In this document: in pieces, positions 5,399 to 22,313 of the stretch
Layout of the letters: each line of letters begins with the position of its first letter
How positions within the stretch are numbered: the stretch's first letter is position 1
From: Pseudomonadota bacterium
Lineage (GTDB): Bacteria > Myxococcota_A > UBA796 > SXON01
DNA: 24,000 bases
Assembly: GCA_005778355.1 (NCBI GenBank)
Contig: SXON01000226.1
Span: 18,926 to 42,925 of the forward strand
Reading direction: 5' to 3'
The notes under the pieces: generated by a model
Seen by the model: only the letters and a program-made list of their open reading frames with translations
Told to the model about the DNA's origin: nothing
Database searches by the model: none
Program-made: the position numbers and the translations under genes

Positions 5399-7855
5399 AT
5401 GTGGCTCGTCGCGCTCGCGCTGGCCGCACCGCCCTTTCCCCTCGATTTGCCGGGGGAAAGCGACGGCGCGCTGGCGGGGACGGAGGTGTACCTTTCGCAG
5501 TGTCACGGCTGGATCTGGTACGACAGCCTTGACGACTTCTCCACCCAGCGCGGCAACCTCTACGACACCGTGGAAGACTTCCACAACCCCGAGGCCACCA
5601 ACCAGGCCCTCGCGCCCTTCCTACACAACGCCGGCGCCGACGTGTGGATGGTGAAGGAGCGCGACCACGGTGATCGCTGGGCCATCGCCGACAACGACGA
5701 CGGCAACACCTACGCCGAGTCGGGCAGTGGTTTCGGCACCGGCGACGACGGTTTCGCCGACTGGGGCACCTGGGCCTTCGGCGAGAACCCCTTCGAGTCT
5801 GGCTCCACGCGGCTCGTTCCCACGGGCTCGGTTGCGACATTCACCCTGCGCGCGCCGCAAGCGGGCTGGCAGGCGGTCTACGTGGCCTACGACGCCGATA
5901 GTTCGCTCACCACCGAGGCGCTCTACACGCTGTCCGCGCGCGGCACCGACCTCGAGCGCGTGATCGACCAGACGGCACACGGGTCCACCTGGCGCTACCT
6001 CGATACCCTCTACTTCGAGCCGGGCGACACGCTCACCGTCACGCTCACGCCCCTGTCAGGAACCGCCAGCGCCGACGCGCTGCGCATCGGCGGCGGCACC
6101 GGCGTGATCGAGCGCCAGGGGGAAACGACCGGCCGTCCCCGGTGGGAAGAGGGTGCCATCCTCGCCACCCAATTCAACGGCGCGCCCGAGTCGGTCTACG
6201 ACCCCTACGGCGACGGCAACGGCTCCGATCCCTCCTCGCGCGCCCTGTGGGCGGCCTGGGAGCACCCCTCCCGGGCCGACGCGCTCTACGTGTCCTGGCA
6301 CAGCAACGCCTGCGACGAGTGCGACGCCCGCGGCACCGGCGTGTACGTGTACGACCGCGACTGCTCGTCCGGGGCCCCCACCGAAGGCAGCGAGCTGCTC
6401 GCCGAGCTGCTCCAGGAAGAGATCGTGGCGGTGGGACGGGCCTGGGACCCCGAGTGGCAAGACCGGGGAACGAAGTCCGACTGCTTCTCCGAGGTGAATC
6501 CCAGTCTCAACGACGAGATGCCGGCCGCGCTCATCGAGATTGCCTTCCACGACACCGAGGCCGACATCGAGATCCTGAAGGACCCCGCCTTCAGGGTCGA
6601 CGCGTCACGCGCGATCTACCGGGCCATCGCCCGCTACTTCGAGGGTGACAACGTGCGCTTCTTGCCGGAACCGCCGCTCTACCCCTCGCTGCGCAACACC
6701 GACAGCGGCTTGCACTTGAGTTGGACACCGGGATGGTCCGGCGACCTCTGGGGTGACTCGGCGGAGCATTACCTGGTGCAAACCTCGACCGATGGTCGCG
6801 CGTGGACGGCGGGAACAAAGGTTGATGGCACCGAGTTCGACATCGATGCCGCCACGGGGGACCTAGTGTTTGCCCGCGTGGTGGCGGTGAACGACGGGGG
6901 TGTCAGCTTCCCCTCCTCGGTGGTGGCGGCACGGCGAGGTGACGGGCCGCCGCTGTTGCTGGTCAACGCCTTCGACCGCCTCGACACGGGCCTCTTGCCC
7001 TGGGAAGACCTCGGCGGCAGCGTAGGCGAGGTGCGTCGCATGGACCTGCAACGTCTCAACGCCGGCGACATCCTCGTGCCCCATGCGCTCGCGGTGGCCG
7101 CCCTCGGCTGGCCGTTCGACAGCGTGGAAGACGAGTCCCTCCCCGCGCTCGACGACTACCGGGCCGTCGTGTGGGCCACCGCCGAGGAGAGCACGGTCGA
7201 CGCGAGCTTCTCCGACGCGCAACAAGCCACCATCCGCGCCTACGTGGAGGGCGGCGGTGCGCTCTGGGCCACCGGCGCCGAGATCCTCTGGGATCTCGAC
7301 GCCAAGGGCGACGCCGACGAGCAGGCCTTCGCGGAAGAGGTGCTGGGCGCCCGCTACGCGAGCGACGACTGCGAGTGCACCCGAGCCACCGGTCGCGACA
7401 TCCTCGCGGGGGTGGAGATGAGCTTTACCGAGGTGTACCCGGTGGAGTACGCCGACGCACTCGACCCCGAGGGCACCGTCATTGCCGAGTACCCCGACGG
7501 CACCGCCGCAGCGGCGCTGCACGGGACGGTGGCCCTCTTCGGCTTTCCCTTCGAGGCCATCGACGACGAGGCGGTTCGCGCGGAGGTGGCCGCCGCGGTG
7601 CTGGGCGCGTTGGTGCCCGGCTACGAGCCACCGGTCGACACCGGCGACGGCGACGAAAGCGCTGGCGGCGAGGCTGGCAGCGGGGATCCCCCGGGGACGC
7701 TCGCGCGTCCCGAGGCGCCGGGAGCATGCGGGTGTGCGACCGGAAGCGCGGCGCCCTGGTTCGGCGTCGCGTCCGCGGTCGCTCAGCTCTGGCGGCGTCG
7801 CGCCAACAACAGCGGCGCCATCAGGCCAAGCACTAGGCTGCCCGCGCCCGATTGA
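5399..7855 (+). CDS. Large secreted N-acetylmuramoyl-L-alanine amidase (Amidase_3 family) with an inserted beta-sandwich domain, an FN3-like domain, an unassigned alpha/beta domain and a MYXO-CTERM-like tail
   Basis: The N-terminus has a short signal peptide, [12 protein letters not shown]. Amidase_3 motifs: [56 protein letters not shown]. An insertion at about 5670-6105 ends ...[10 protein letters not shown] (golvesin-C-like pattern). FN3-like segment: LHLSWTPG...[13 protein letters not shown]. The tail is [27 protein letters not shown]. Confidence 0.9.
7721..7801 (+). other. MYXO-CTERM-like tripartite sorting signal of the amidase (Gly/Cys motif, hydrophobic helix, RRR)
   Basis: [27 protein letters not shown]. 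It is atypical in being followed by 17 more residues before the stop at 7853-7855. Confidence 0.6.
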
Positions 7856-8955
7856 CACGTCGCGGCACCGCCCATGAGCGCGTCGAAGTCGCAGAGATCG
7901 CCCTTGCCATCGAGGTCGCGGTCGGGCTGGTCGGCGTCGCTCACCGTGGGGCACACGTCGCAGGCGTCGCCCACCCCGTCGCCGTCGGTGTCGGTGTTGT
8001 CGGCCACGCCGAGCTCCGGGCAGAGGTCGCAGAGGTCGCCCACGCCGTCCTCGTCGGCGTCGAGCTGTCCCGGGTCGGCCACGGTTGGGCAGAGGTCGCA
8101 GGCGTCGCCCACGTTGTCGAGATCGACGTCGGCGTTGCTCGCGTCGAGCTCGAGCGGGCAGAAGTCACACTCGTCGCCGAGGCCGTCGGCGTCGCTGTCG
8201 AGCTGGTCGCGGTTGTACACCTCGGTGCAGTTGTCGCAGTTGTCGCCGAAGCCGTCGTAGTCGGGGTCGTCGCCGTTGTCGGGGTCCGACGGGCAACCGT
8301 CGCAGGCGTCGCCCACGCCGTCGGCGTCGGCGTCGGCCTGGTCGCTGTTGCCCACGTTGGGGCAGTTGTCGCAGTCGTCGCCCTTCCCATCGGCGTCGAG
8401 ATCGTCCTGGTTGTTCTCGAAGCCGTTGCAGTTGTCGCACTCGTCGCCCGCGCCGTCGCCATCGCTGTCCACCTGGTCGGGATCGGCCACGAAGGGGCAC
8501 ACGTCGCACTCGTCGCCGAGCTCGTCGGTGTCGGAGTTGGTCTGCTCGTGGTTCTCCACGCTCACGCAGTCGTCGCAGGCGTCGCCCACGCCGTCGCAGT
8601 CGGTGTCGATCTGGTCGGCGTTGACGGTGGTCGCGCAATTGTCACACGCCAGGGTGACGGTGATGTCAGGGTAGGCCACGTCTTCCGGGAAGTCCATGGT
8701 CCCGGCCGAGAAGCCGTCGCCATCGACGTCGAGCGGCACGAGCAGGTAGCTACACCCGAAGCTGTAGTAGTCGTAGTAGTAGTCGGCGTTGGGGTAGGGC
8801 TCGCCGGTGTTGGGGTCGACGTTGGCGGCGCAGGTGGGATCGGAGAGATCCACGGCGCCCTCGTTGGCCGCGTCGACGTTGTTGCAGTTCACGTCTTGCG
8901 TGATCCCATCGTGACACTCGTCGGCGAGTGCGAGGCTGAGGAGGAGAGTGATCAT
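7783..8955 (-). CDS. Secreted thrombospondin type-3 repeat (calcium-binding) protein with a MYXO-CTERM-like C-terminal sorting signal
   Basis: The ATG overlaps the upstream OmpA-gene stop (ATGA). The N-terminus has a signal peptide, [12 protein letters not shown] ~100 aa N-terminal Cys-containing domain is followed by 11 DxDxDGxGDxCDxCP repeats. The tail is [29 protein letters not shown]. Confidence 0.9.
7786..7875 (-). other. MYXO-CTERM-like sorting signal of the TSP3 protein
   Basis: GGAATCQSG (Gly/Cys motif), [15 protein letters not shown] (hydrophobic helix), RRRQS then stop. Confidence 0.6.
7888..8646 (-). repeat. Array of 11 tandem TSP type-3 repeats (22-26 aa each), also visible as degenerate ~66-78 nt DNA periodicity
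   Basis: Repeats run from C104 ([26 protein letters not shown]) to D356 ([23 protein letters not shown]). The plus strand shows recurring gtcgcaggcgtcgcccacgccgtc-type strings. Confidence 0.9.
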
Positions 8956-10457
8956 TCGTCGTCTTCCTCGAAGTGCGACTTGTCGATGTCGAGATCATCG
9001 CCCTTCGGGGGCATCGGGCGCGGCGCGGGGGCAGGCGGGGGCTGGTCGGGCGGCGGGGCGGACACGGGCGCGGCGGGGATCGTCTTCGCATCGCCGTTCC
9101 AGGGCAGCTTGATCTCGGTTTCCCAGCCGGGATTCGGCTCGCCCACGGCGAGGCGGCGCGCGATGGCGAAGACCACGCGGCGGTTGGCGGCGTCGTCGCC
9201 CTCCTTCACCGGCATCACCTCGCCGTAGCCTCGGATCGCCAGGCGCGACGGGTGCACCCCGGACTCCACGAGGAACTTGAACACCGCCAGGGCGCGGTCG
9301 ACGGAGAGGGCGTAGTTCGACTCGAAGGTGCCCTCGCCCGAGGCGTGTCCCTCGATGATGAGCGTCTGGATGTCGGCGTTCTCGTTCATCAGCTGGGCGA
9401 CGAACTCGAGGGTGGGCATCGACTCCGGCAGGATGATGTCTTTCGCGGCGGCGAAACGAAGGGCGTCGCGGATGACGATCTCCTTCTGGGTCACCACCGC
9501 GAGCGGCTTCTCGGGCTCGGGCTCGGGCTCGGGCTCTTCCTCGATGATCTTGTCGAGCTCGGCGTCGGTCACCTCGGCCTGGTAGACCGGCGCGAGCACC
9601 TCGACGGGCTTCGGGTCTTCCGGCACCCGCTGGTAGGTGACGGCGAGAACTGCTCGCGCGTCGGTGGCGCCGTAGCCGGCGGTGAGTCCCTTGCCCCCGT
9701 AGGCGTCGATCCACCACTCCTTGTGAACCCCCACCTGCGCACCCCCGAGCAGCTCCACCGGGAAGGTGGAGTCGCTCGCGACGTCGGCGGTGAGGCCCAC
9801 GCGGGCGAGGGCGAGCAAGTGCGGCCGCAGGCGGCCATCGAGCAGACCGTAGGAGATGTCGGCCGCCGTGGTGAGCTCCTGGCCGAGTCCCAGCGTTTCC
9901 TGGGTGGGCACCACGCCGCGAAGCATGAAGCTCGCGTCGACCTCCACGCGGAAGTCGCCGGGGGAGAGCGCGAAGGCCACGCCGGGCGCGAAGCGGAGGC
10001 TCGCCTCGCCGAGGTACGAGGCGGGACGCGCAATCGGCACGTAGAGGTCGCCATGCGCACCGAGCGCCAACAGATCGGTCTCCACGAGCTCGAAGCGCAG
10101 ACCGGCCGACAGGTCGCCGGCCCCGAAACCATCCGCGGCCAGAGCGTCGAGTTCGCTGCCGAAGGTGAAGGCCACCGGCAACGTCGCCCGCACCGCCACC
10201 CGGCGACTCACGTCGACGCTGGCCCCCGCGTGAACCGCGAGGCGATTGCCCACGACCGAGCCGAGCTCCTCGCCCTCCACGACCAGGACCAGCGGGTTGG
10301 ACTGGTACTGCACGACGGCCCCGGCGGTGACCGCGCCCTGCTTCTGCACTTCCGGCGCGTCGATGCCGGGCGGCGCGCCGGAGAAGCCCGGGCGAACCAG
10401 CTCGATGTCGAGCGAGTAGCCCTCGGCGAGGGCTAGAGGGAGGAGCGCGAGGATCAC
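8952..10457 (-). CDS. Outer-membrane beta-barrel protein with an OmpA/MotB peptidoglycan-binding domain and a Pro-rich acidic tail
   Basis: GTG start; the N-terminus has a signal peptide, [11 protein letters not shown]. About 270 aa show an alternating hydrophobic beta-strand pattern. After an [13 protein letters not shown] linker comes the OmpA_C-like region: [50 protein letters not shown]...NRRVVFAI. The tail is [17 protein letters not shown]...EEDDE. Confidence 0.9.
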
Positions 10458-10492
10458 GTGGGGACCAGGGTCGGGACCACCCTGCTATCGCA

Positions 10493-13177
10493 TCAGAAGC
10501 TCACCGTGCCTTCGACGTACGCGGTGCGTCGCGGCTGCGGCAGCTCGGCCATCAGCACCTCGTCGCCGCCGGGGTAGCCGTAGTTCCAATCGAGCACGTT
10601 CTTCACGCCCATCGCCCAGTCGAGGCTGAACGAGGGCACCGCGCCGCTGAGCACGAGGTCCCAGAGCACGAAGGGATCGGTCGTCGCGCCGGTGGTGGTG
10701 AGCCGGCCCGTCTCGAAGCGCACCCGCGTGGACCCCGTCATCTGGCCCGGGAGCAGCGGCGCCGCCGCCTTGAGCGAGGCGAGGTAGGCCGGGGAGTTGG
10801 TGAGCTCGTCGCCCGCGAGGAGGTCGCCCTCCCGGGTGTGCTGGTAGCCCTGCGTCACCGCGCACATCCAGCCGCCGCGCCAGTCGCGACGCAGCTCCAG
10901 CTCGGCGCCAGCCGCCTGCACGACCTCGCTGGTGTTCTGGTACTGCAAGACGCCGTCACTCCCGACGTTGCCGAGGTCGACCAGGGCATCGATCTGGTTG
11001 TAGTAGGCCGACAGGACCGCTGAGCCCACCTCGGTGAAACGCCAGGTGTACTCGGCCTCTCCGGTGATGATGGTCTCAGGCAAGAGCCCGGTCGCCGTCA
11101 CCTGGGTGTAGCCGTCGTCGTTGTAATAGAGCTCGTAGGGCGAGGGCGCTCGAAAGGCCCGACCGCCGAGGAGCTTCACCGTGTGCGCCTCGCCGGGGCG
11201 GAGGATCAGGGCGGCCCGGGGGTTGATCGAGAGGCCGAAGCTACTGAAGTAGTCCACGCGGCCGCCGACGCTGGCGGTGAGCCACTCGCCCGCGTCGGCC
11301 TCCGCCACCGCGTAGGCTCCGCCCGACTGGTAGCTCGGCGACTCGTCGAGGTAGGGGCCAGCACGATCTTCGCCGTGAAGCTCGGCCTGGAGGTGGGCGT
11401 CCACCGCGAGCCCGCCGGTGAGGCGGAACCAGGTGGAGGGGCTCCCCACGACGCGGGCCTCGGCCCCGGTCCAGGTGCCGTGCCAGGTGTCGGCCACGAA
11501 GTCGCCCACGTAGGGGTAGCGCCCGGCAAAGTCGTACCGGTCGACGTAGGCCCGGCTGTAGAGTTGGACGTCCTTCGACAACTCGGGCTCGAAACGAAGC
11601 TCGGCGAAGGCGCGGGTATCGGCGCTGTGCGCGTCTTCGTCGGCGAGCACGGTGTCGTAGGCGCCGGTGGGGATGCGCTTGTCGCGATGGTTTCCGTAGG
11701 CCATCACCGTCCACGGGCCCGACCACAGCTTGCCCCGCGCGCCCGCCGAGCCGAAGCCGTCTGCCCCCTCGCTCTTGCCGTCACCCGTGGCCTGCTCGAT
11801 GGCCTCGAACTCGAAGTCCTGGCCGCGCGAGAGCGCCCCACCGGCGGAGAGCCACCAGCCCGCGTCGACGCCCATCGTGCCCGAGGCGCTGGCCCTCGCG
11901 CGTGCGGTGCCGTGCCCCAGTGCCCCGAGGGACAGGTGGGAGGGCCGGGTGCTCTCGCGTTCCCGCGTGACGACGTTGATGACCCCGAGGAAGGCGTTGG
12001 TGCCGTAGAGCGCCGAGCCGGCGCCGCGAACCACCTCGATGCGCTCCACGTCGCCGAGGTCTTGCGCGAAGTCGAAGCCCATGTAGGAGGCGCCGAGCTG
12101 ATCGTCGTTGAGCGCGTGACCGTCGAGTGTCAACAAGATTCGATTGTTGTAGTCGCCCGGGCGGGCGAAGCCGCGCACGCCCACGTACTCGTACACCCGG
12201 TCGTTGCTCTGGAACAAGCCGCGGGTGCCCCCGAGCGCGTCGTACACCGTCTCGTAGCCGAAGGCCCGGATCTCCTCGGCGGGGATCAAGCTGACACTCG
12301 CCGGGGCGTCTTCGACCTCTTGCGTGGTACGGCTCGCCGCCGTCACCTCCTGGAGCGGGCGCAGCTGGGCGGTCACCGCCACCCGCCCGTCGGCTTCGAC
12401 CTCCACCTCGGCCTCGAAGGGCCGGTAGCCTGGCAGCGACACCCGCAGCCGGTGTTTGCCGGCGGAAACAGCGGGGAGCACCGCAGGCGTGAAGCCTGCC
12501 GCCTCGCCGTCGATCTCGATGAGCGCTCCCTTCTCGAGGGCGTCGACCACCACCGCCCCGGTGATGAGCGGCAGCTCGACGACCGCCTGCACCGAGCCGT
12601 CGGCCGCCACCGACACCAGCTGCCGCGCGGTGCGGTAGCCGGGCGCGTCGACAATCAACATGTGTGAGCCCGGCGAGAGCCGCAGGGCGCCCGGGATGGT
12701 GGCCACCGGCTCGCTGTCTTCCACGTCGACTCGCACCCGGGCGCCCGCGGGCTGGCCGGTGAGCTCGACCGTGCCGAGCACCGGCTCCAACTGCAACCGG
12801 ACGCCGCTCTCCTTGCCCACGGTGGCGCTCACGTTGGTGCGCTGCGCCTCGTGAAACCCGTCGCGACGCAGGATCACGGTGTGGTCGCCCGGGTCGAGCG
12901 CGAGGATGAGCGGGGTCTGCCCTCGGCTGCCGAGATCCACGCGGTCGACGAAGACCTGCGCCCCCGGCGGGTCGCTCTCCACGTTGACCAGGGCCACGCG
13001 CGGCCGGATGCGCGCGATCGCCTCCTCCGCGCCCTGTCGACGGGCGGGGTCGGTTTCGACCGAGAGGTAGTCCCGGTAGTGCCGGAAGGCCTCGGCGAAG
13101 CGCCCGAGCTGCTCGTAGGCGCGGGCGATGTTGAACACCACGTTGCGGTTGGGAACGAGGCGGTTGCTGGTCAGCAA
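10493..13177 (-). CDS. TonB-dependent-receptor-like outer-membrane protein with an N-terminal TPR + 3x PEGA extension; coordinates are the minimal TTG-start ORF and the true start is probably upstream at 13309 or 13324
   Basis: TPR-like helices: NIARAYEQLGRFAEAFRHYRDYL. Three PEGA-like domains lie at 12353-12997. Plug motifs: VTAASRTTQEVEDAPASVSLIPAEEIRAFGYETVYDALGGTRGL...IEVVRGAGSALYGTNAFLGVINVVTRE. A long barrel ends ...YVEGTVSF with a terminal Phe. The frame stays open upstream to 13327 and there encodes a signal-peptide-like PLFFLASFWASFALAAEP. Confidence 0.9.
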   Translation of the reverse strand: MLTSNRLVPNRNVVFNIARAYEQLGRFAEAFRHYRDYLSVETDPARRQGAEEAIARIRPRVALVNVESDPPGAQVFVDRVDLGSRGQTPLILALDPGDHTVILRRDGFHEAQRTNVSATVGKESGVRLQLEPVLGTVELTGQPAGARVRVDVEDSEPVATIPGALRLSPGSHMLIVDAPGYRTARQLVSVAADGSVQAVVELPLITGAVVVDALEKGALIEIDGEAAGFTPAVLPAVSAGKHRLRVSLPGYRPFEAEVEVEADGRVAVTAQLRPLQEVTAASRTTQEVEDAPASVSLIPAEEIRAFGYETVYDALGGTRGLFQSNDRVYEYVGVRGFARPGDYNNRILLTLDGHALNDDQLGASYMGFDFAQDLGDVERIEVVRGAGSALYGTNAFLGVINVVTRERESTRPSHLSLGALGHGTARARASASGTMGVDAGWWLSAGGALSRGQDFEFEAIEQATGDGKSEGADGFGSAGARGKLWSGPWTVMAYGNHRDKRIPTGAYDTVLADEDAHSADTRAFAELRFEPELSKDVQLYSRAYVDRYDFAGRYPYVGDFVADTWHGTWTGAEARVVGSPSTWFRLTGGLAVDAHLQAELHGEDRAGPYLDESPSYQSGGAYAVAEADAGEWLTASVGGRVDYFSSFGLSINPRAALILRPGEAHTVKLLGGRAFRAPSPYELYYNDDGYTQVTATGLLPETIITGEAEYTWRFTEVGSAVLSAYYNQIDALVDLGNVGSDGVLQYQNTSEVVQAAGAELELRRDWRGGWMCAVTQGYQHTREGDLLAGDELTNSPAYLASLKAAAPLLPGQMTGSTRVRFETGRLTTTGATTDPFVLWDLVLSGAVPSFSLDWAMGVKNVLDWNYGYPGGDEVLMAELPQPRRTAYVEGTVSF

Positions 13178-13327
13178 GTGCTCTAGAGCACCAAGATAGT
13201 CACGACGCTGGTAGGCCGCGACGCCGAGCTCGAACTGGATGTCGGCCTCGTCGGCGAGGTCGAGCGAGGGCTCGGCGGCGAGGGCAAACGAGGCCCAGAA
13301 CGAGGCCAGGAAAAAGAGCGGAATGTC

Positions 13328-14962
13328 TCACCTCTCCAGGCGAATGTCGTCGCCCGAGCCGCCGACGGGCGGCGTGCTGGGTCGCGCCGAGCGCGGGATC
13401 TTCTCGAGTTCCACCGCGAGCGCGCCGTCGTCGTCGGGCCCGTCGAGGCTCAGGGTGCGCACCCGGTAGCCGGGTTGGCGCACCTCGAGTTGCGATGGCC
13501 GCGCCGGGTCGTAGCCCAGCTCCACGGGGCTCGGCCCGACGAGCTTGCCGTCGAGGTACACGCTCGCGCCCTCGGGGATCGTCGTCACCCGGAGGGTGCT
13601 GGCGGTGGCCGGCACGGCAGGCTTCGGTGCGGCCACGCCGTCGGCCATGACCCGGAGCGCCTCGTCCACGGGGACCTCGGGCGGTGGCTGCGTCGCGACC
13701 ATGTCGCCACTGGTGCTGTACCACCAGATCCCCAACACGATGAGCGCCAGCGCGAAGAAGAGGAAGACCCCGGCGCCGGCGCCAAGAGCCAACCAGCGGC
13801 CAGTGGCGGGGGCCGCGGGCGGTGCGACAGGCGGCGTTGGCCCGAGGCGCACGCCCGCGTTGGCCAGCGAGCGCGTGATCTCCGGGGAGGCCAGGACCGT
13901 GGGCGAGGTGGGCAGGCGCGTGTCGACCGGGCTGGGGGCCATGTCCGAGGGCGACCAGGTGCGCGCGGCGGCCTGCGGCTTCTCGTCGGTGGCCGACTCG
14001 TCTTCCAAGGGGAGGTCGACGGTGGCCTCGGGCAGGTCGGATACCGGCAATAGCCGCGTGGCCCGCAAAGCGAGGATCACCGCGTCGGCGTCGGCGTAGC
14101 GAGCGCGCGGGTCTTTCTCGAGGAGACGACGCAGGAGCGCTTCGAGTTGCGACGGGACGCCCTCGGGCGCGTGTAGGGCCGGCACCGGGTCGTTCAGGTG
14201 CATCAAGAGCGTCCGCACCGGCTCGCTCGACGAGAAAGGCGGCGCCCCCGACAACATCTCGAACATCATCACGCCGAGGGCGTAGAGGTCGGCGCGACCG
14301 TCAATCTGCTCCTGCCTTACTTGCTCCGGCGCCGTGTAGCGGGGCGAGCCCACGAAGCTGCCGTCGGTGGTGAGCGACTCGGCGCCCTCGGCCATCACCT
14401 TGGCCACGCCGAAGTCGAGCACCTTGACCGCCTCGCCTTCCTCGGTTTGCGCCAGCATCACGTTCGACGGCTTCAAGTCGCGATGCACGATGCCAGCCCG
14501 GTGGGCCTCGCGAAGGGACCGGCAGATCTCGTGGGCCACGCGCACCGTGCGCGCGGCGGAGAGCGGACCCTCGCTCCGCATCGCCTGGGAGATCGTGCGC
14601 CCGCGAACGAACTCCATCACCATGTAGAAGGTCTGCTCGCCAGCCACGTCGATCGAGCCATAGTCAAAGACGGTCACGGTGTTGGGGTGACGGAGCCGGG
14701 CGCAGGTGGCCGCTTCCAAGAGGAATCGTTTCTCCAGCGCCACGTCGTCGAGCGCCGTTCCCATCGCCGGGCGGGTGAGGATCTTCAGCGCCACCTCGCG
14801 ACCGAGAGGCGCCTGTTCGGCCCGATAGATGCGCCCCATCCCCCCGCGCGCCACGAGCTCGATCACGTGGTACTTCCCGGCGACCACGGCACCGACGAGC
14901 GGATCGTTCACCGCAGACGGTGGCGGACTCCCGGGTGGTGGCAGCCCTTGGGCGCTCGACAC
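13328..14962 (-). CDS. Hanks-type Ser/Thr protein kinase with one TM helix and a periplasmic PEGA domain
   Basis: The preferred start is GTG 14962 (MSSAQGLPPPGS...). Kinase motifs: GGMGRIYRA, VALKIL, HRDLKPSNVM, DFGVAK, GSPRYTAPE, DLYALGVMMFEMLSG. The TM helix WLALGAGAGVFLFFALALIVLGIWWY is at 13718-13795. The PEGA domain LRVTTIPEGASVYLDGKLVG...YRVRTLSL is at about 13397-13594. The 645-aa ORF reaching 15265 adds an Arg/Glu-rich extension overlapping the divergent gene, so I rejected it. Confidence 0.9.
   Translation of the reverse strand: MSSAQGLPPPGSPPPSAVNDPLVGAVVAGKYHVIELVARGGMGRIYRAEQAPLGREVALKILTRPAMGTALDDVALEKRFLLEAATCARLRHPNTVTVFDYGSIDVAGEQTFYMVMEFVRGRTISQAMRSEGPLSAARTVRVAHEICRSLREAHRAGIVHRDLKPSNVMLAQTEEGEAVKVLDFGVAKVMAEGAESLTTDGSFVGSPRYTAPEQVRQEQIDGRADLYALGVMMFEMLSGAPPFSSSEPVRTLLMHLNDPVPALHAPEGVPSQLEALLRRLLEKDPRARYADADAVILALRATRLLPVSDLPEATVDLPLEDESATDEKPQAAARTWSPSDMAPSPVDTRLPTSPTVLASPEITRSLANAGVRLGPTPPVAPPAAPATGRWLALGAGAGVFLFFALALIVLGIWWYSTSGDMVATQPPPEVPVDEALRVMADGVAAPKPAVPATASTLRVTTIPEGASVYLDGKLVGPSPVELGYDPARPSQLEVRQPGYRVRTLSLDGPDDDGALAVELEKIPRSARPSTPPVGGSGDDIRLER
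13331..13337 (-). promoter_or_regulatory. Shine-Dalgarno-like GGAGAGG inside the kinase 3' end, 6 nt upstream of an in-frame ATT (13322-13324) that could start the TBDR-like gene
   Basis: The minus strand reads CTGGAGAGGTGAGACATTCCG. GGAGAGG, TGAGAC, ATT. There is no ATG, GTG or TTG in frame between 13327 and 13178. Confidence 0.4.
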
Positions 14963-15019
14963 GCGCGAAGCGTAGCATGCTGGCCAAGGGCGCCCGCGGC
15001 GTGTAGGGTTCTGGTGTCG

Positions 15020-15625
15020 ATGCACGACGAGCACGCCACACCCCGCTTCGTCGCCGCCCTCGACCCCGGGCAGCTCAGGCTCGGACCGATGCTCCTGCGG
15101 CTCGCGGCCGCGATCGGCGCAATGGTCCTGGGTGTCTTGGCCCTCGCCTACTGCTTCCGCGCCCCGCTGGAGGCGGCCGGCAACGCGCTCGTCGCGGCCA
15201 CCGGCATCGGCGGCATCGCGGCGGTGGTGCTCGCCCTCGATCCGTTGCCGGGGCTCGGCTTCCAACCTGGACTGGTCCTGGGCACGGCGGCTGGGGTGTC
15301 GGCCTGGCCGCTCTTCTTCACCGCCTCGCTGGCCTCGATGGGCTCTTCGGTGCTCGGCTGGGCGCTGGGGCGCTGGGGTCGTCGCCTGCGCTGGCTGGAG
15401 CGCATCCTGCTGGTCTCCGGTGCCGCCGCGGCCGTTACCCGCTGGGGTGGCCGAGCGGTGGCCATCGCGGGCGTCACCCCGATCCCCTTCGGTCTCGCCA
15501 CCGTCGCTGCCGGCGCCGTCGGCATGCCGCTCGACGTCCTGGCCCTCGCCGCCACCGCACGGTGGATCAAGATCGGGCTTTCGCTGCTGGCAATCTCGCT
15601 CGGGTGGGACGCCGCCACCGGGTAG
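15020..15625 (+). CDS. Polytopic membrane protein, DedA/YqaA (VTT/SNARE-associated domain)-like
   Basis: ATG at 15020 lies in the frame of the 14198-15625 ORF. There are 4-5 hydrophobic helices. WGGRAVAIAGVTPIPFGLATVAAGAVGMPLDVLALAATARWIKIGL resembles the YqaA/DedA C-terminal pattern. The gene is divergent from the kinase across a 57-bp gap. Confidence 0.65.
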   Translation: MHDEHATPRFVAALDPGQLRLGPMLLRLAAAIGAMVLGVLALAYCFRAPLEAAGNALVAATGIGGIAAVVLALDPLPGLGFQPGLVLGTAAGVSAWPLFFTASLASMGSSVLGWALGRWGRRLRWLERILLVSGAAAAVTRWGGRAVAIAGVTPIPFGLATVAAGAVGMPLDVLALAATARWIKIGLSLLAISLGWDAATG

Positions 15626-15631
15626 CGGCGC

Positions 15632-17542
<1,911 letters not shown>

Positions 17543-17883: not shown

Positions 17884-19788
17884 ATGCGCTACAGCCCATT
17901 TCTCATCGGCCTGCTCGCTTGCTCCGACTTCAACCTCGAGGGCCTCGACAACAAAGACGCCAACACCGACGGCGACGACACCGCCTTCGACCCCGAGGAA
18001 GAAGACCTCGGCGCCTGTGACCCGGAGGAGTTCGAGCCCGAGTCGGTGGCGCTGTCGGACACCTGCCACTTCGACATCGGCGGCTTCGAGCCTGTGATTT
18101 CCTGGGAGGCCGAGGGCAATGCCTGCTCGCTCCCCGCAGTGGGCGACATCAACGGCGACGGCATGCCGGAAGTGGTGATCACCTGGGGCTGGTTGTTCGA
18201 GCCCTTCGGCGAGTTCGCCGCCTACTCGGGCGACGGGAGCGGTGAGCTGTGGCGAACCAGCGGCGCGAGCATCGGCTACGGCTCGGGCCCCACCCTCGCC
18301 GACCTCGATGGCGACGGGCAGGCCGAGATCCTCGGCGTGAAGCTCCACGAGTACAACCTCATCGCCAACAACCCCGTCAGCATCGTCATGTACGACAGCG
18401 AGGGCAACTTCCTGGCCGAGTCCGACACCTACTCCGACGGCGAGTTCGACCACGTCACCGGCATCGTCGTGTCCGACATGGATCACGACGGCCACGCGGA
18501 GATCATCGCAGGGCGCGTGATCCTCAACGACGACCTCACCGAGCGCGGCGTGGGTCGCGATGGCCGCGGCTGCGACAACTACTTCGGCGTGGGCGGGCTT
18601 TACGGGGAGGGCGCAACGCCCGCCGTGGCCGACATGGACCTCGACGGCGTGGAGGAGGTGATCGTCGGTAACGCCTTCTACGATCCCGATGGTTACTCGA
18701 TCATGGAGGTGCGCGGTGGGCCCGACGGTGCACCGGCGATCGGCAACTTCGACGGCGACGCCGAGGGCGAGTTCGTGCGCGCCACCTACAGCGAACTCGT
18801 CGCCTACGACACCGATGGCACCGAGATGTGGACCTACGCGCTGCCCGGCGGCGGCGGCGACAACTCGGGCATCATGTCGGTGCCCACCGTGGGCGACATC
18901 GACGGCGACGGCCTCCCCGAGGTCGTCGCGGCGCGGGCCAACAACATCTGGGCGGTGAACGGGGAAGACGGCTCGGTGCTGTGGAGCGCGCGGGTGACCG
19001 ACACCACCGGCGCCTCGGGCGCCTCGCTGTTTGACTTCGAGGGCGACGGCATCCAGGAGGTGGTGTACTTCGACGAGGTGGCGGTCTACGCCTTCGACGG
19101 CACCAACGGCGACGTGAAGTTCAAGTCCGACGAGCATGCGTCGGACACGATGTACGACTACCCGGTGATCGCCGACGTCGACGCCGACGGCCATGCCGAC
19201 GTTGTCGTGACCCACGACGGCAACTTTGCCGGCGGGGCAGGCTTCTCGGTGTACCGCGACGTGAAGAACTCCTGGGCACCGGCGCGATCGGTGTGGAACA
19301 TGCACGCCTACGACATCACCCACGTCAACGACGACCTGACGATCCCGACCACGGCGGTGCAGAACTTCAGCAGCTACAACAACTTCCACTCGGCGTTGGC
19401 GCTGGCCCCCGGCGAGGCCCTCGGCGACGAGCTGTCAGCCGAGATCCTGTCTACCTGCGAGGACGACTGCGACCGCGGCTGGTACCTCGTCACCGCGCGA
19501 GCGCAGAACACGGGCTCGGCCAACGTGGCGGCCGGGGTGTCGCTCTCGCTCTACGCGGAGATCGACGGCGCGCTGGTCAACCTCGCCACGGAAACCCTCA
19601 CCGACGCGGTGCCCTCGGGCATGACCTCGGAGGCGGTGATCTTCGCGGTGGAGTCCAGCGACATCGAAGACGCCGACGCGCTCTGGGTATACGTCGATGA
19701 CAACGGCAGCCGCACCGGCTTCGTGTCGGAGTGCGACGAGACCAACAACGGGGCGATGGTGAAAAAGCCCTTCTGCAGCAGCAAGTAG
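17884..19788 (+). CDS. Acidic lipoprotein with an 8-blade FG-GAP/VCBS (integrin-alpha-like) beta-propeller and a C-terminal CARDB-like domain
   Basis: MRYSPFLIGLLAC has a lipobox. There are eight DxDxDG calcium-loop repeats: VGDINGDGMPEVV, LADLDGDGQAEIL, VSDMDHDGHAEII, VADMDLDGVEEVIV, IGNFDGDAEGEFV, VGDIDGDGLPEVV, LFDFEGDGIQEVV, IADVDADGHADVV. The C-terminus (GWYLVTARAQNTGSANV...ECDETNNG) is typical of CARDB. Confidence 0.9.
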   Translation: MRYSPFLIGLLACSDFNLEGLDNKDANTDGDDTAFDPEEEDLGACDPEEFEPESVALSDTCHFDIGGFEPVISWEAEGNACSLPAVGDINGDGMPEVVITWGWLFEPFGEFAAYSGDGSGELWRTSGASIGYGSGPTLADLDGDGQAEILGVKLHEYNLIANNPVSIVMYDSEGNFLAESDTYSDGEFDHVTGIVVSDMDHDGHAEIIAGRVILNDDLTERGVGRDGRGCDNYFGVGGLYGEGATPAVADMDLDGVEEVIVGNAFYDPDGYSIMEVRGGPDGAPAIGNFDGDAEGEFVRATYSELVAYDTDGTEMWTYALPGGGGDNSGIMSVPTVGDIDGDGLPEVVAARANNIWAVNGEDGSVLWSARVTDTTGASGASLFDFEGDGIQEVVYFDEVAVYAFDGTNGDVKFKSDEHASDTMYDYPVIADVDADGHADVVVTHDGNFAGGAGFSVYRDVKNSWAPARSVWNMHAYDITHVNDDLTIPTTAVQNFSSYNNFHSALALAPGEALGDELSAEILSTCEDDCDRGWYLVTARAQNTGSANVAAGVSLSLYAEIDGALVNLATETLTDAVPSGMTSEAVIFAVESSDIEDADALWVYVDDNGSRTGFVSECDETNNGAMVKKPFCSSK

Positions 19789-20375
19789 TGCGACGAGGCT
19801 GGATCGTTGGCGCCGCGGTCGGGGCGCTTGCGTTAGCCGGGCTGTCGCGACAGGTCGCCTACGTGCCCGACGGCGAGATGGCGCCCAGCTACTTGCGGGG
19901 CGACCTGCTTCTGGTCTTGCCGCTCGAGCCCCGCGAGGGCGACGTGGTGGCCCTGCGCGACCCCCTCGACGCCTCGCGCTGGACACTAAGGCGCGTGGAG
20001 GGCATCGGCGGCGCCGCGCGCTACTCCTCGGCGGGCGTGCACACCTCGAACCGTCCCAAGTCGAGACTGCTCGACATGGGCGAGTTCGACGGGGAGGCGA
20101 TTCGCCTGGAGGGTGAACATCTCGTGTCGCGACGACTCGACGAGGTGACCCGCTACGAGCACGACGATGTCGGCATCCCCGACGACGCCGCATACCTCTC
20201 GGCCGACTCGCGGGACCGCGCGATCGACAGTCGCTGGTGGGGCCCGGTGCCGCTCGACGCGCTCGGGGGCGTGGTCGTCTTCCGGCTTGGCGCCCCGGCC
20301 ACGCCCTGGCGAGGCTGGACCGGCGGCCGGAGCGAGGGCGTGGTCATTCCGCAGTCCACCGAGGCGGCGGGCTAG
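19788..20375 (+). CDS. Signal peptidase I (S26 family) homologue with a substituted catalytic dyad; probably non-catalytic
   Basis: GTG 19788 overlaps the upstream TAG by 1 nt (TAGTG). The N-terminal TM is RRGWIVGAAVGALALAGL. Box B-like VPDGEMAPSYLRGDLLLV has Glu where the nucleophile Ser is expected. Box D-like TLRRVEGIGG has Arg where Lys is expected. Box E-like ADSRDRAIDSRWWGPVPLDALGGVV is present. Confidence 0.8.
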   Translation: MRRGWIVGAAVGALALAGLSRQVAYVPDGEMAPSYLRGDLLLVLPLEPREGDVVALRDPLDASRWTLRRVEGIGGAARYSSAGVHTSNRPKSRLLDMGEFDGEAIRLEGEHLVSRRLDEVTRYEHDDVGIPDDAAYLSADSRDRAIDSRWWGPVPLDALGGVVVFRLGAPATPWRGWTGGRSEGVVIPQSTEAAG

Positions 20376-20989
20376 TCCTTTTCCTGGTACGAATACCGCT
20401 CTTCCAACCAGGGGTCGGCGCGATTGTGGTACCCGCGCTCCTCCCAGAAGCCCCGGCGATCCGCGGGCAGGAACTCGAGCCCACACACCCACTTGGCGCT
20501 CTTCCACGCGTAGAGGTGGTGAACCACGAGGCGGATCGGTCCCCCGTGCTCGGGGGTGAGCGGCGCGCCGTCGTGTCGCAAGGCGAGGAGGTTGTCGTCC
20601 CTCGCGAAGTCGCCCATGGGCAGGTTCGTCGTGTAGTCGATGCTGTCGTAGCAGTGCACGAGCACGTGGGTAGCGGTGTCGCGCGGGCGCGCGAGGTCGA
20701 TCATCGTCTTGACCGACACCCCTTCCCAGAGGTTGTCGTAGCGCGACCACGTGGTGACGCAGTGAAAGTCACGGGTAACCGCGATCTTCGGCAGATCGTT
20801 GAGCTCGGCCCAGCTGAGCTTGACCGGGTTTTCCACGTCGCCCCACACCCGGAAACGCCAGGTGGCGGCATTGAAGTCGGGGATGGGTCCCTCGTGCAGC
20901 ACGGGGAAGCCCTTCACCAGCTTCTGGCCCGGGGGCAGGCGCTCTGTCGACCGTGCCTTCGCCTTGTCCTTGCCGGGTCGCCAGAGCAT
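20372..20989 (-). CDS. Small cytoplasmic sulfite-oxidase-family molybdopterin oxidoreductase (YuiH/MsrP catalytic-domain-like)
   Basis: The protein reads ...WRFRVWGDVENPVKLSWAELNDLPKIAVTRDFHCVTTWSRYDNLWEGVSV...LALRHDGAPLTPEHGGPIRLVVHHLYAWKSAKWVCGLEF...GFWEERGYH. The Cys ligand context HCVTTWS is retained. There is no twin-arginine signal. The ATG lies 1 nt after the upstream stop (TGAGATG). Confidence 0.88.
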   Translation of the reverse strand: MLWRPGKDKAKARSTERLPPGQKLVKGFPVLHEGPIPDFNAATWRFRVWGDVENPVKLSWAELNDLPKIAVTRDFHCVTTWSRYDNLWEGVSVKTMIDLARPRDTATHVLVHCYDSIDYTTNLPMGDFARDDNLLALRHDGAPLTPEHGGPIRLVVHHLYAWKSAKWVCGLEFLPADRRGFWEERGYHNRADPWLEERYSYQEKD

Positions 20990-20990
20990 C

Positions 20991-21776
20991 TCAGGCGCCC
21001 GTGAGCTGGAGGGTGGAGAAGCCGAAGCGCACCTTCAGGGTCATCTCGTCGTCGCTGATGTCGAGAGCCACGTCGTCGACGCCCATCTTCACGCGCAGGG
21101 GCCCACCGGCCGGCGCCACCATCTCCTCCACCTGGTCCTTGCGCAGGATGGGCACGGGGTTCACCTTGTCGACCTGGTCGTGGAGCAAGCGCTCCACCCC
21201 TCGCGACAACATCTGCAGCACGAAGGACTCGCCGAGATCCACCTCGACGTCTTGCAGGCGGCCGATGAGCGCGCGCTTCTCGCGGTCGTAGTGAATGTCG
21301 GCGAGCGCCGCCTCGGCGCCGATGCGCTTCTCGAGCACGAAGGGGATCTCGATGTTCTCGCGCAGCAAGTACACCTTGCCCGTCGCGACCGCCTTCACGT
21401 GCGCCTCGACGCCGAAACGCTGCGCCGCGTACTTGAAGTCCGAGCCGTCGCGGTCGACCATCACCTGCCAGTCGCCCTGCACCTTCACCAGCTCGTCGAC
21501 CACTCGCCACACCGTTTCCCGGCGGTTCTCCCACACCTTCACCGCGGCGTCCTTGCCGCGCACCACCACCGGCGGGAGCTGCACGTTGCGATCTTCCAGG
21601 AGCCCGCGCACCTTCTGCCGCACGCCGAGCTGCTTCACCCCCACGCGCACCTGTTGCACGAGGTCAAACGTGCCCTTTCCCACCTCGAAGGGGAGGCCCA
21701 CCCCGAACAGGTCGTTCCAGAGGGCCTTCCCGATGGTGAACTTCAGGTGGTAGCCGTCGCCAATCTGCTTGCTCAT
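20991..21776 (-). CDS. Hypothetical cytoplasmic protein (261 aa), translationally linked to the molybdoenzyme gene
   Basis: ATG start and good G/C3 bias. The composition is balanced rather than the Arg/Gly/Ala-rich shadow-ORF type. No motif recognised. Confidence 0.75.
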   Translation of the reverse strand: MSKQIGDGYHLKFTIGKALWNDLFGVGLPFEVGKGTFDLVQQVRVGVKQLGVRQKVRGLLEDRNVQLPPVVVRGKDAAVKVWENRRETVWRVVDELVKVQGDWQVMVDRDGSDFKYAAQRFGVEAHVKAVATGKVYLLRENIEIPFVLEKRIGAEAALADIHYDREKRALIGRLQDVEVDLGESFVLQMLSRGVERLLHDQVDKVNPVPILRKDQVEEMVAPAGGPLRVKMGVDDVALDISDDEMTLKVRFGFSTLQLTGA

Positions 21777-21848
21777 CCGCGCTCCGCGAGCGGGGAGTGT
21801 AGCAGGGGCGAGGCGCTCGCGGGCCCAACCCAGGTCGCGCCCGCCTGC

Positions 21849-22265
21849 CTAGAAGATCTCGTGCTGCGGGAACCAGTAGCCAATCTCGCGGACGGCGCTC
21901 GCGTCGCTGTCGGAGCCGTGCACCGCGTTCTCGCCCTTGCTGCGGGCGAAGAGCTTGCGCAGGGTGCCGTCGGCCGCCTGGGCGGGATCGGTCGCGCCCA
22001 TGAGCTCCTCCCGGTAGCGGAAACGAACGTTCTCGCCCTCGAGCACCATCAGCACCAGGGGGCCCGAGACCATGAAGGTGATGAGCTCGCCGAAGAACCC
22101 ACGCTCGCGGTGCTCGGCGTAGAAGCCCTCGGCCTCGCGGCGGGTGAGCTGCACCATCTTCATCGCCGCCACGCGCACGCCGCGCTCCTCGAGGTAGGCG
22201 ATGATCGCCCCGATCTTGTTGTCCTTGACGGCGTCGGGCTTGATGATGGCGAAGGTCTGGTTCAT
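21849..22265 (-). CDS. ndk: Nucleoside diphosphate kinase
   Basis: [48 protein letters not shown] and NAVHGSDS (active-site His) are all present. The length is 138 aa. Confidence 0.97.
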
Positions 22266-22313
22266 GGGGGTCTCCGGGAAGGGCCGGCTTCTATCGGAGC
22301 CCCCGCGTCGCGG

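Follow-up and report, generated by a model that had tools for sequence, protein, structure and literature searches.

A conserved kinase and TonB-dependent receptor gene pair in Myxococcota: a possible trans-envelope signaling unit with a phosphorylation output

TonB-dependent transducers of the outer membrane signal through pairs of an anti-sigma factor and an extracytoplasmic function (ECF) sigma factor. Kinases of the Hanks type are the other half of this study; to our knowledge, most bacterial receptor kinases of this type have no known input, and we know of no kinase partner for the receptors Oar and SusC. Elsewhere, tetratricopeptide repeat (TPR) domains bind C-terminal peptides, as in Hop (EEVD-COOH), PEX5 (SKL-COOH), and Cdc27 of the anaphase-promoting complex/cyclosome (an Ile-Arg tail). 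Here we describe a locus in which a kinase gene and a receptor gene stand side by side, in 24,000 nucleotides of DNA—hereafter the window—from a bacterium labeled Pseudomonadota and placed by GTDB in Myxococcota_A (UBA796; SXON01; contig SXON01000226.1 of assembly GCA_005778355.1, positions 18,926 to 42,925). In window coordinates, with (−) marking the reverse strand, a receptor-type Hanks Ser/Thr kinase gene (13328–14911 (−), 527 residues, stop included) is followed by the gene for a TonB-dependent receptor with a periplasmic N-terminal extension (10493–13324 (−), 943 residues, stop included). An earlier note, made from the sequence alone, had proposed FecA/FecR-like signaling between the two proteins with Ser/Thr phosphorylation as the output, linked by the PEGA domains that both carry. 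Comparative sequence analysis indicates that the two genes form a module that is conserved and co-translated in Polyangia-type Myxococcota, and a functionally coupled unit of kinase and TonB-dependent transducer is well supported on the same grounds.

How general is the pairing of the two genes? Our comparison covers 80 loci, one per species-level genome and 1.29 Mb of DNA in total, which where named are mostly assigned to Sandaracinaceae, Polyangiaceae, Labilithrix, Myxococcales, and Myxococcota. Adjacency was counted in the 62 loci whose upstream sequence extends for 2.5 kb or more and was defined as a same-strand kinase open reading frame (ORF) ending less than 400 nucleotides before the receptor match. 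By this measure, a same-strand Hanks kinase stands ahead of the receptor in 53 of the 62 loci (85%); the earlier note had made its proposal depend on synteny in related genomes, and the pair is syntenic there. Kinase matches found with tblastn include 57 adjacent to the receptor and only 21 more across the 1.29 Mb of locus DNA. Receptors of the loci are 39–91% identical to that of the window, with kinase linkage persisting to ∼40%, and no other neighbor cluster is common to more than 14 loci when all ORFs are clustered. Because the pair stays syntenic through the turnover of its other neighbors, its adjacency is not a matter of chance. Several apparent exceptions have a kinase as well, broken by a frameshift in one locus (L027), divergently oriented in two (L047 and L073), and downstream in another (L068). 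The pair also occurs, with a 22-nucleotide gap, in the complete genome of Sandaracinus amylolyticus. Receptors of this kind are numerous: at least 1,548 proteins match the window receptor in a word-indexed search, the best 120 sharing its length and domains, and its N-terminal extension alone retrieves 430 clusters at 50% identity with E ≤ 1e-30. Among the best 150 of these matches, those that cover the full extension are all N-terminal, in proteins of ∼950 residues. A full-text literature search of incomplete coverage returned no description of the receptor–kinase pairing or of PEGA domains joined to TonB-dependent receptors. We take the conserved functional pairing to be real, and it appears not to have been described.

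What sets the receptor-linked kinases apart from other kinases? All of them terminate in [DE]-[IL]-[RK]-x-x-R-COOH, a motif lacking in other kinases of the same loci. In the window, this tail reads DDIRLER-COOH (13331–13351 (−)), an instance of the family motif D-I-[RK]-x-x-R-COOH. Across an alignment of 75 homologs, R527 does not vary and I523 is shared by at least 90%, and conservation averages 2.96 bits per position in the tail, compared with 3.01 in the catalytic domain and 1.94 in the kinase PEGA domain. The terminal Arg is encoded by many different Arg codons across the loci, a synonymous variation that shows selection at the protein level. The motif is also retained where no receptor start comes after it, which indicates a feature of the protein rather than a ribosome-binding site. 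The tail is present in 81 of the best 120 kinase homologs and closes 69 of 1,461 candidate locus ORFs, 57 of them kinases and the rest mostly kinases truncated at contig ends. Where the kinase gene is divergent (L047 and L073) or downstream (L068), the tail is kept. In the AlphaFold2 (AF2) monomer model of the window kinase, the last 11 residues are disordered (predicted local distance difference test score, pLDDT, <50) and would therefore be free to bind in trans. An unusual locus, L079 (2447–12886), encodes a 195-residue protein composed of a zinc-ribbon-like N terminus, a transmembrane helix, a PEGA domain, and the tail PDIMDER. It belongs to a same-strand cluster with genes for a STAS protein, a tail-less 899-residue kinase, an unknown protein, and a SpoIIE/PP2C phosphatase, the receptor gene coming last. 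A metagenome scan found no relatives of the 195-residue protein; the cluster resembles a module that has been split or given an alternative output, as a single case.

Do the PEGA domains that the two proteins share form the link, as the earlier note had argued? The kinase has one periplasmic PEGA beta-sandwich (∼13397–13600 (−)), containing the motif IPEGASVYLDG and scoring 36.6 bits in Pfam against a cutoff of 20.8 (residues 455–500 of the 544-residue reading); AF2 places the sandwich at residues 438–505, with its strands at 438–501 and a pLDDT of ∼96. The receptor has three such sandwiches in tandem (12365–12997 (−), residues 110–320), supported by Pfam and by AF2 (residues 111–319, pLDDT ∼88). 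The earlier assignment of 12353–12997 to PEGA stands: three stretches of the receptor together score 109.1 bits with PEGA (cutoff 20.8), as against 47.2 bits with CarboxypepD_reg. So does its resemblance to the kinase ectodomain, since hhalign finds homology between the kinase PEGA and each receptor repeat (probability 95–97%, E from 2e-8 to 3e-11). The receptor repeats match one another at E from 1e-11 to 4e-15, however, and the kinase PEGA is no closer to them than they are to each other. It also ranks last in conservation among the folded parts of the pair, at the 1.94 bits given above. Present in 44 of 56 linked kinases, PEGA is absent in any frame from the other 12 (L038, L039, L042, L044, L045, L049, L060, L061, L064, L072, L074, and L076). 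The periplasmic part of these PEGA-less kinases consists of 90–130 residues of Ala/Pro/Thr-rich low-complexity sequence followed by the same tail, and the receptors paired with them lack neither the TPR domain nor any of the three PEGA domains. Because these 12 kinases lack PEGA and keep both tail and linkage, the invariant link would be the tail, not matching PEGA modules. Of the earlier proposal, then, the coupled unit is borne out by comparative genomics and the argument from matching PEGA modules is not, while direction and contact are matters of deduction.

The kinase itself has the anatomy that the earlier note described—a catalytic domain, one transmembrane helix, and a single C-terminal PEGA domain—on which Pfam, the sequence, and AF2 agree. 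Its protein is 100% identical over 527 residues to that of a called gene (P0123) in NCBI record SXGS01526895.1 (assembly GCA_005801925.1). The annotated start is accordingly the GTG at 14911, not position 14962 as first read; the other coordinates in the earlier note are correct to within a few codons. The cytoplasmic catalytic domain (14093–14872 (−), residues 31–290 of the 544-residue reading) scores 159.9 bits with Pfam Pkinase against a cutoff of 31.7. K43, H143-R144-D145, N150, and D166-F167-G168 are invariant among the 75 homologs, which implies that kinase activity is under selection. By these residues and this profile, the protein is a Hanks-type Ser/Thr kinase, with phosphotransfer predicted. 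The AF2 model built from the 75 homologs has a mean pLDDT of 79.9 and exceeds 90 in the catalytic domain. A Pro/Ser/Thr-rich juxtamembrane linker (13805–14026 (−), residues 296–369) is disordered (pLDDT <50), and the linker region as a whole (residues 276–371) has a mean conservation of 0.92 bits. The single transmembrane helix (13718–13798 (−), RWLALGAGAGVFLFFALALIVLGIWWY) spans residues 371–401 in the AF2 model, with a hydrophobic stretch that reads RWLALGAG...WWY, and the periplasmic linkers beyond it are conserved at 1.2–1.5 bits per position. Given one transmembrane helix and a domain that depends on ATP, the C-terminal 129 residues are predicted to be periplasmic, a topology consistent with the earlier placement of the PEGA domain on that side. 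Pfam finds no PASTA match in the kinase, and NF033483 scores 289.8 bits against a cutoff of 450 and covers the kinase domain only; judged by these profiles, the protein is not a PASTA kinase (PknB/Stk1). With its C-terminal 164 residues as the query, a search of a 5.8-billion-protein set returned only two matches.

Is the receptor a genuine TonB-dependent protein, and what does its extension consist of? The earlier note had listed a signal-like peptide, TPR helices, three PEGA-like domains, a plug, and a barrel ending in Phe; all hold, with the TPR helices now refined to two repeats and a cap. The short signal peptide (13277–13324 (−)) reads IPLFFLASFWASFALA and then AEP, a hydrophobic stretch followed by ALA cut before AEP; receptor homologs have equivalent N termini with a signal peptide, and that of the window has a pLDDT <50 in the AF2 model (83 homologs; mean pLDDT 90.7, barrel >90). 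The TPR domain (12998–13255 (−), residues 24–109) scores 27.5 bits with Pfam TPR_2 against a cutoff of 27, matches consensus-TPR designs in the PDB (best E 2e-8, 1na0), and is modeled as five helices with a pLDDT of ∼90. No other part of the extension is as well conserved (3.02 bits, with PEGA1–3 at 2.5–2.9 and the barrel at 2.56), and the conserved Asn, Arg, and acidic residues of the TPR domain are N54, R55, N59, N61, N65, E71, and R81. Beyond the PEGA repeats, a linker of lower confidence (residues 321–340) holds the TonB-box region PLQEVTAASR (12329–12358 (−), pLDDT 68–73), which aligns with the VVTASS region of Cir. Among the 83 homologs, R332 never varies, and conservation reaches at least 90% at E326, V327, A329, A330, and S331. 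Because the box aligns with Cir and is nearly invariant, the periplasmic extension that precedes it (residues 17–320) can be read as an arm of ∼300 residues N-terminal to the TonB box. The plug (11981–12316 (−), Pfam 64.6 bits, cutoff 23.9) aligns to Cir, PhuR, and FhuA, and the beta-barrel (10496–11959 (−), PF00593, 84.5 bits, cutoff 27) ends in Phe (...TVSF). Foldseek matches the barrel to BtuB at a target-normalized TM score of 0.85, and its best matches, PqqU and BtuB, reach 0.87. Plug, barrel, TonB box, and C-terminal Phe together mark the receptor, from sequence and model, as a bona fide TonB-dependent transporter; Pfam finds no STN domain (PF07660) in it at E up to 1. A separate observation concerns the TPR motif Y-E-Q-L, in which the otherwise invariant Glu (E72 in 944-residue numbering) is Ala in the receptors of L062, L063, and L069, which have no adjacent tail-bearing kinase, and Gln in that of L079. 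E72 is thus lost in 3 or 4 of 6 kinase-less receptors, a hint from a small sample and probably from a single clade.

Where does translation of the receptor begin? The TGA at 13330–13328 is the sole stop separating the two reading frames, which lie on the same strand and in the same frame, as had been noted earlier. Inspection of the sequence finds no ATG, GTG, or TTG from the kinase stop down to 13177, so a receptor signal peptide requires a non-canonical start codon. Foremost among the candidates is the ATT at 13322–13324 (−), the second codon after the kinase TGA and the probable start; the CTG at 13309 is an alternative. A Shine-Dalgarno-like GGAGAGG (13331–13337 (−)) lies within the last kinase codons, 6 nucleotides before the ATT, and is conserved in loci with ATT, ATC, or GTG at the receptor start position. 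That position holds ATT or ATC in L001, L002, L003, L005, L010, and L034, ATG in L006, GTG in L008, and CTG in L009, and ATT or ATC follows GGAGAGG in seven genomes of the window's clade. The NCBI annotation begins instead at the TTG at 13177 and yields an 894-residue product that has no signal peptide and lacks the first TPR helix. In many loci the kinase stop and receptor start overlap or nearly abut, and in more distant loci the junction is an ATGA or TGATG overlap or a gap only a few nucleotides long; translation of the two genes appears to be coupled. Two other explanations of the junction were considered. A frameshift or sequencing error in a T5 run might explain why the receptor start is missing (the −1 frame has a GTG that overlaps the TGA); this idea was rejected because ATT or ATC recurs at the codon in seven genomes and ATG or GTG in two others. 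Stop-codon read-through to a kinase–receptor fusion was rejected because the two genes of more distant loci lie in different frames with ATGA-type overlaps.

How might such a pair work? We propose a FecA/FecR-like trans-envelope unit in which receptor and kinase meet in the periplasm, the tail docks on the arm, and phosphorylation is the output, a proposal whose truth we regard as evenly poised. The kinase would sit in the inner membrane with its catalytic domain, predicted to be active, in the cytoplasm and a periplasmic tether ending in D-I-R-x-x-R-COOH. The receptor arm, with its TPR and three PEGA domains, would reach inward from the outer membrane as the kinase tether reaches outward, the PEGA domains acting as spacers with which the two halves can bridge the periplasm. 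When a ligand binds at the outer membrane, the plug, the TonB box, and the arm would move; the kinase would sense this movement and change the phosphorylation of cytoplasmic targets, with no sigma/anti-sigma pair involved. The tail would dock on the arm, most plausibly at the TPR domain, which we prefer because its conservation is the highest in the arm and its fold is that of a canonical TPR, because TPRs bind C-terminal peptides, and because the tail is unstructured on its own. The narrower claim that the transducer reports ligand occupancy directly to a Hanks kinase tethered through its tail, and so represents a new class of cell-surface signaling, is put forward tentatively, and we rate it somewhat short of probable.

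Several results weigh against this reading. Five loci (L062, L063, L069, L071, and L080, with L079 in part), or ∼10% of receptor loci, have no adjacent tail-bearing kinase, and their receptors still keep the TPR and PEGA domains. Neighbor clusters of the 80 loci include no conserved cytoplasmic substrate, phosphatase, or regulator near the pair. The pairing of tail and TPR domain draws on conservation and analogy, and mutual information with average product correction between tail positions and receptor-arm columns, computed from 56 pairs only, was enriched in no domain. What the analysis shows is the anatomy of the domains, the linkage of the genes, their translational coupling, and the pattern of conservation; contact, contact site, direction of signaling, ligand, and substrates are all points that we infer. 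Finally, PEGA domains are described as peptidoglycan-associating (PMC7159879), and for that reason those in the pair may anchor both proteins rather than signal.

This last property leads to an account in which the two proteins share a pathway and never touch. PEGA would hold both at the peptidoglycan, and the kinase would be an independent sensor of the envelope or cell wall, like the PASTA kinases, and would only be co-expressed with a nutrient transporter whose transcription it might regulate. Besides the peptidoglycan association of PEGA, this account gains from the downstream gene in the operon of the window's clade, which encodes an OmpA-type peptidoglycan-binding protein of the outer membrane (8952–10457 (−), 35 nucleotides downstream of the receptor; Pfam OmpA 56.9 bits), and it dispenses with a receptor–kinase contact. 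It has difficulty with the 12 of 56 linked kinases that lack PEGA or any folded ectodomain and have only a low-complexity linker and the tail, which leaves nothing for sensing but the tail itself; the tail, moreover, is specific to receptor-linked kinases, and the linkage survives gene rearrangements. We consider this account unlikely, though worth keeping in view. Signaling might instead run inside-out, with the periplasmic tether of the kinase gating, positioning, assembling, or stabilizing the receptor, whether as control from cytoplasm to outer membrane or as a mere structural anchor. Translational coupling suggests stoichiometric co-assembly, and a transmembrane helix followed by a Pro-rich linker and a terminal binding element resembles the layout of TonB. 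The invariance of the catalytic residues is hard to square with a role that is structural only, however, and the arm precedes the TonB box, an arrangement shared with known outside-in transducers; such control seems to us improbable.

A further possibility is an Oar-like export or surface complex, in which the receptor would work with the products of the downstream genes, the kinase serving as an accessory regulator of this surface structure. The arm does contain a beta-sandwich of the CarboxypepD_reg type by its 47.2-bit score, and the next two genes, for the OmpA-family protein and for a thrombospondin type-3 (TSP3) repeat protein (7783–8955 (−), Pfam TSP_3 58.3 bits, its ATG overlapping the OmpA stop), have as their best NCBIfam matches TraB (115.6 bits) and MtsC (153.7 bits), respectively. 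These scores fall far under the NCBIfam cutoffs of 700 and 350, and both genes are syntenic in the closest relatives only: OmpA in 12 loci by ORF clustering and 10 by tblastn, and the clade-specific TSP3 gene in 7 by clustering, with a downstream homolog in 9 by tblastn. The SusC/RagA model TIGR04056, furthermore, gives the receptor 30.1 bits against a cutoff of 368.25, and the nearest matches to its barrel are small importers, namely BtuB, PqqU, and Cir, so we hold a complex of this kind to be quite improbable. Could the gene order simply have been inherited, with no functional coupling? All loci come from one phylum, and Myxococcota genomes encode very many Ser/Thr kinases each. Even so, 85% adjacency at 39–91% receptor identity while other neighbors turn over, the private tail motif of the linked kinases, and the retention of the pair in rearranged loci already disfavor this explanation so strongly that we give it hardly any credence.

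The remaining genes of the window (70% GC from 7400 to 15700) include others of possible interest. The TSP3 protein has, as judged by eye, a MYXO-CTERM-like tail (C-x-S-G-A-G-S, a hydrophobic stretch, and RRRQS). The three exported proteins of the operon (7783–13324 (−)) have signal peptides of ∼11–16 residues without a positively charged n-region, which end in L/F-A-L-A: FALA/AEP, LALA/EGY, and LALA/DEC, the slash marking cleavage. Upstream of the kinase gene lies one for a hybrid histidine kinase (15635–17542 (−); PAS, HisKA, HATPase, and receiver domains), and between the two is a divergent gene for a 201-residue protein with a weak VTT/DedA-like match (15020–15625 (+)), which confines the intergenic region before the kinase start to only ∼108 bp. 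Farther out are genes for an 818-residue protein with Golvesin_C and Amidase_3 domains (5399–7852 (+)) and a 634-residue FG-GAP repeat protein (17884–19785 (+)), one for a molybdopterin oxidoreductase (20375–22313 (−)) followed by an unannotated 261-residue ORF, and one for a nucleoside diphosphate kinase. None of these is a conserved neighbor of the pair outside the closest relatives. In another locus, L069, the DnaB helicase gene (5436–8165 (−)) beside the kinase-less receptor has an intein with a LAGLIDADG homing-endonuclease domain. The public records of five metagenome-assembled genomes with a Myxococcota-type locus (L003, L007, L013, L022, and L080) are titled Klebsiella, Enterobacteriaceae, or Enterobacterales, labels that look wrong.

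How, finally, does the pair compare with described systems, and what would it add to them? If the proposed tail-to-arm signaling is real, it would be the first pathway from the outer membrane to the cytoplasm with phosphorylation in place of a sigma/anti-sigma output, and it would supply a defined input for one family of bacterial receptor kinases. The receptor–kinase module would join two fields, and the transducer principle would prove rewirable to phosphorylation. The module is also small (two genes and a seven-residue motif), occurs in the cultured S. amylolyticus with its complete genome, and makes sharp predictions.

In its plug and 22-strand barrel fold, the receptor resembles BtuB, Cir, and PqqU, its nearest neighbors in Foldseek (E from 5e-29 to 4e-28; TM score normalized to BtuB 0.81–0.87); identity to them is only 16–18%, and none has its 300-residue N-terminal arm. 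Like Oar of Myxococcus xanthus and SusC/RagA, it has a beta-sandwich before the plug, seen in the CarboxypepD_reg match. Unlike them, it scores much higher with PEGA and has three copies of that domain plus a TPR domain; by its TIGR04056 score it is not a SusC/RagA member. The kinase shares with the PASTA kinases PknB and PrkC a Hanks catalytic domain, a disordered juxtamembrane linker, one transmembrane helix, and an extracytoplasmic sensor region. It differs from them in lacking PASTA repeats, the ectodomain of its family being one PEGA or nothing, and in its presumed input, an outer-membrane receptor rather than muropeptides. By analogy, the tail and arm recall the TPR–peptide pairs of Hop, PEX5, and Cdc27, in that one protein has a conserved motif at its very C terminus and its genetic partner carries a canonical TPR of high conservation; the receptor TPR region has weak sequence matches to Hop, and it differs from these domains in having only two repeats and a cap and in its periplasmic setting. 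The closest parallel is with FecA-FecR-FecI. As there, the periplasmic extension of the receptor is N-terminal to the TonB box, and, like FecR, the protein encoded next door is a single-pass inner-membrane protein with a periplasmic C-terminal part and an N-terminal cytoplasmic signaling domain. No FecR-type anti-sigma or ECF sigma gene was found among the scanned genes of the window or the conserved neighbor clusters of the 80 loci; with neither such a partner nor an STN domain, the receptor would be transducer-like without being a member of the FecA type. Its extension is instead a TPR domain and three PEGA domains, and in place of the anti-sigma factor stands a Hanks Ser/Thr kinase for which the proposed contact is a C-terminal peptide tail.

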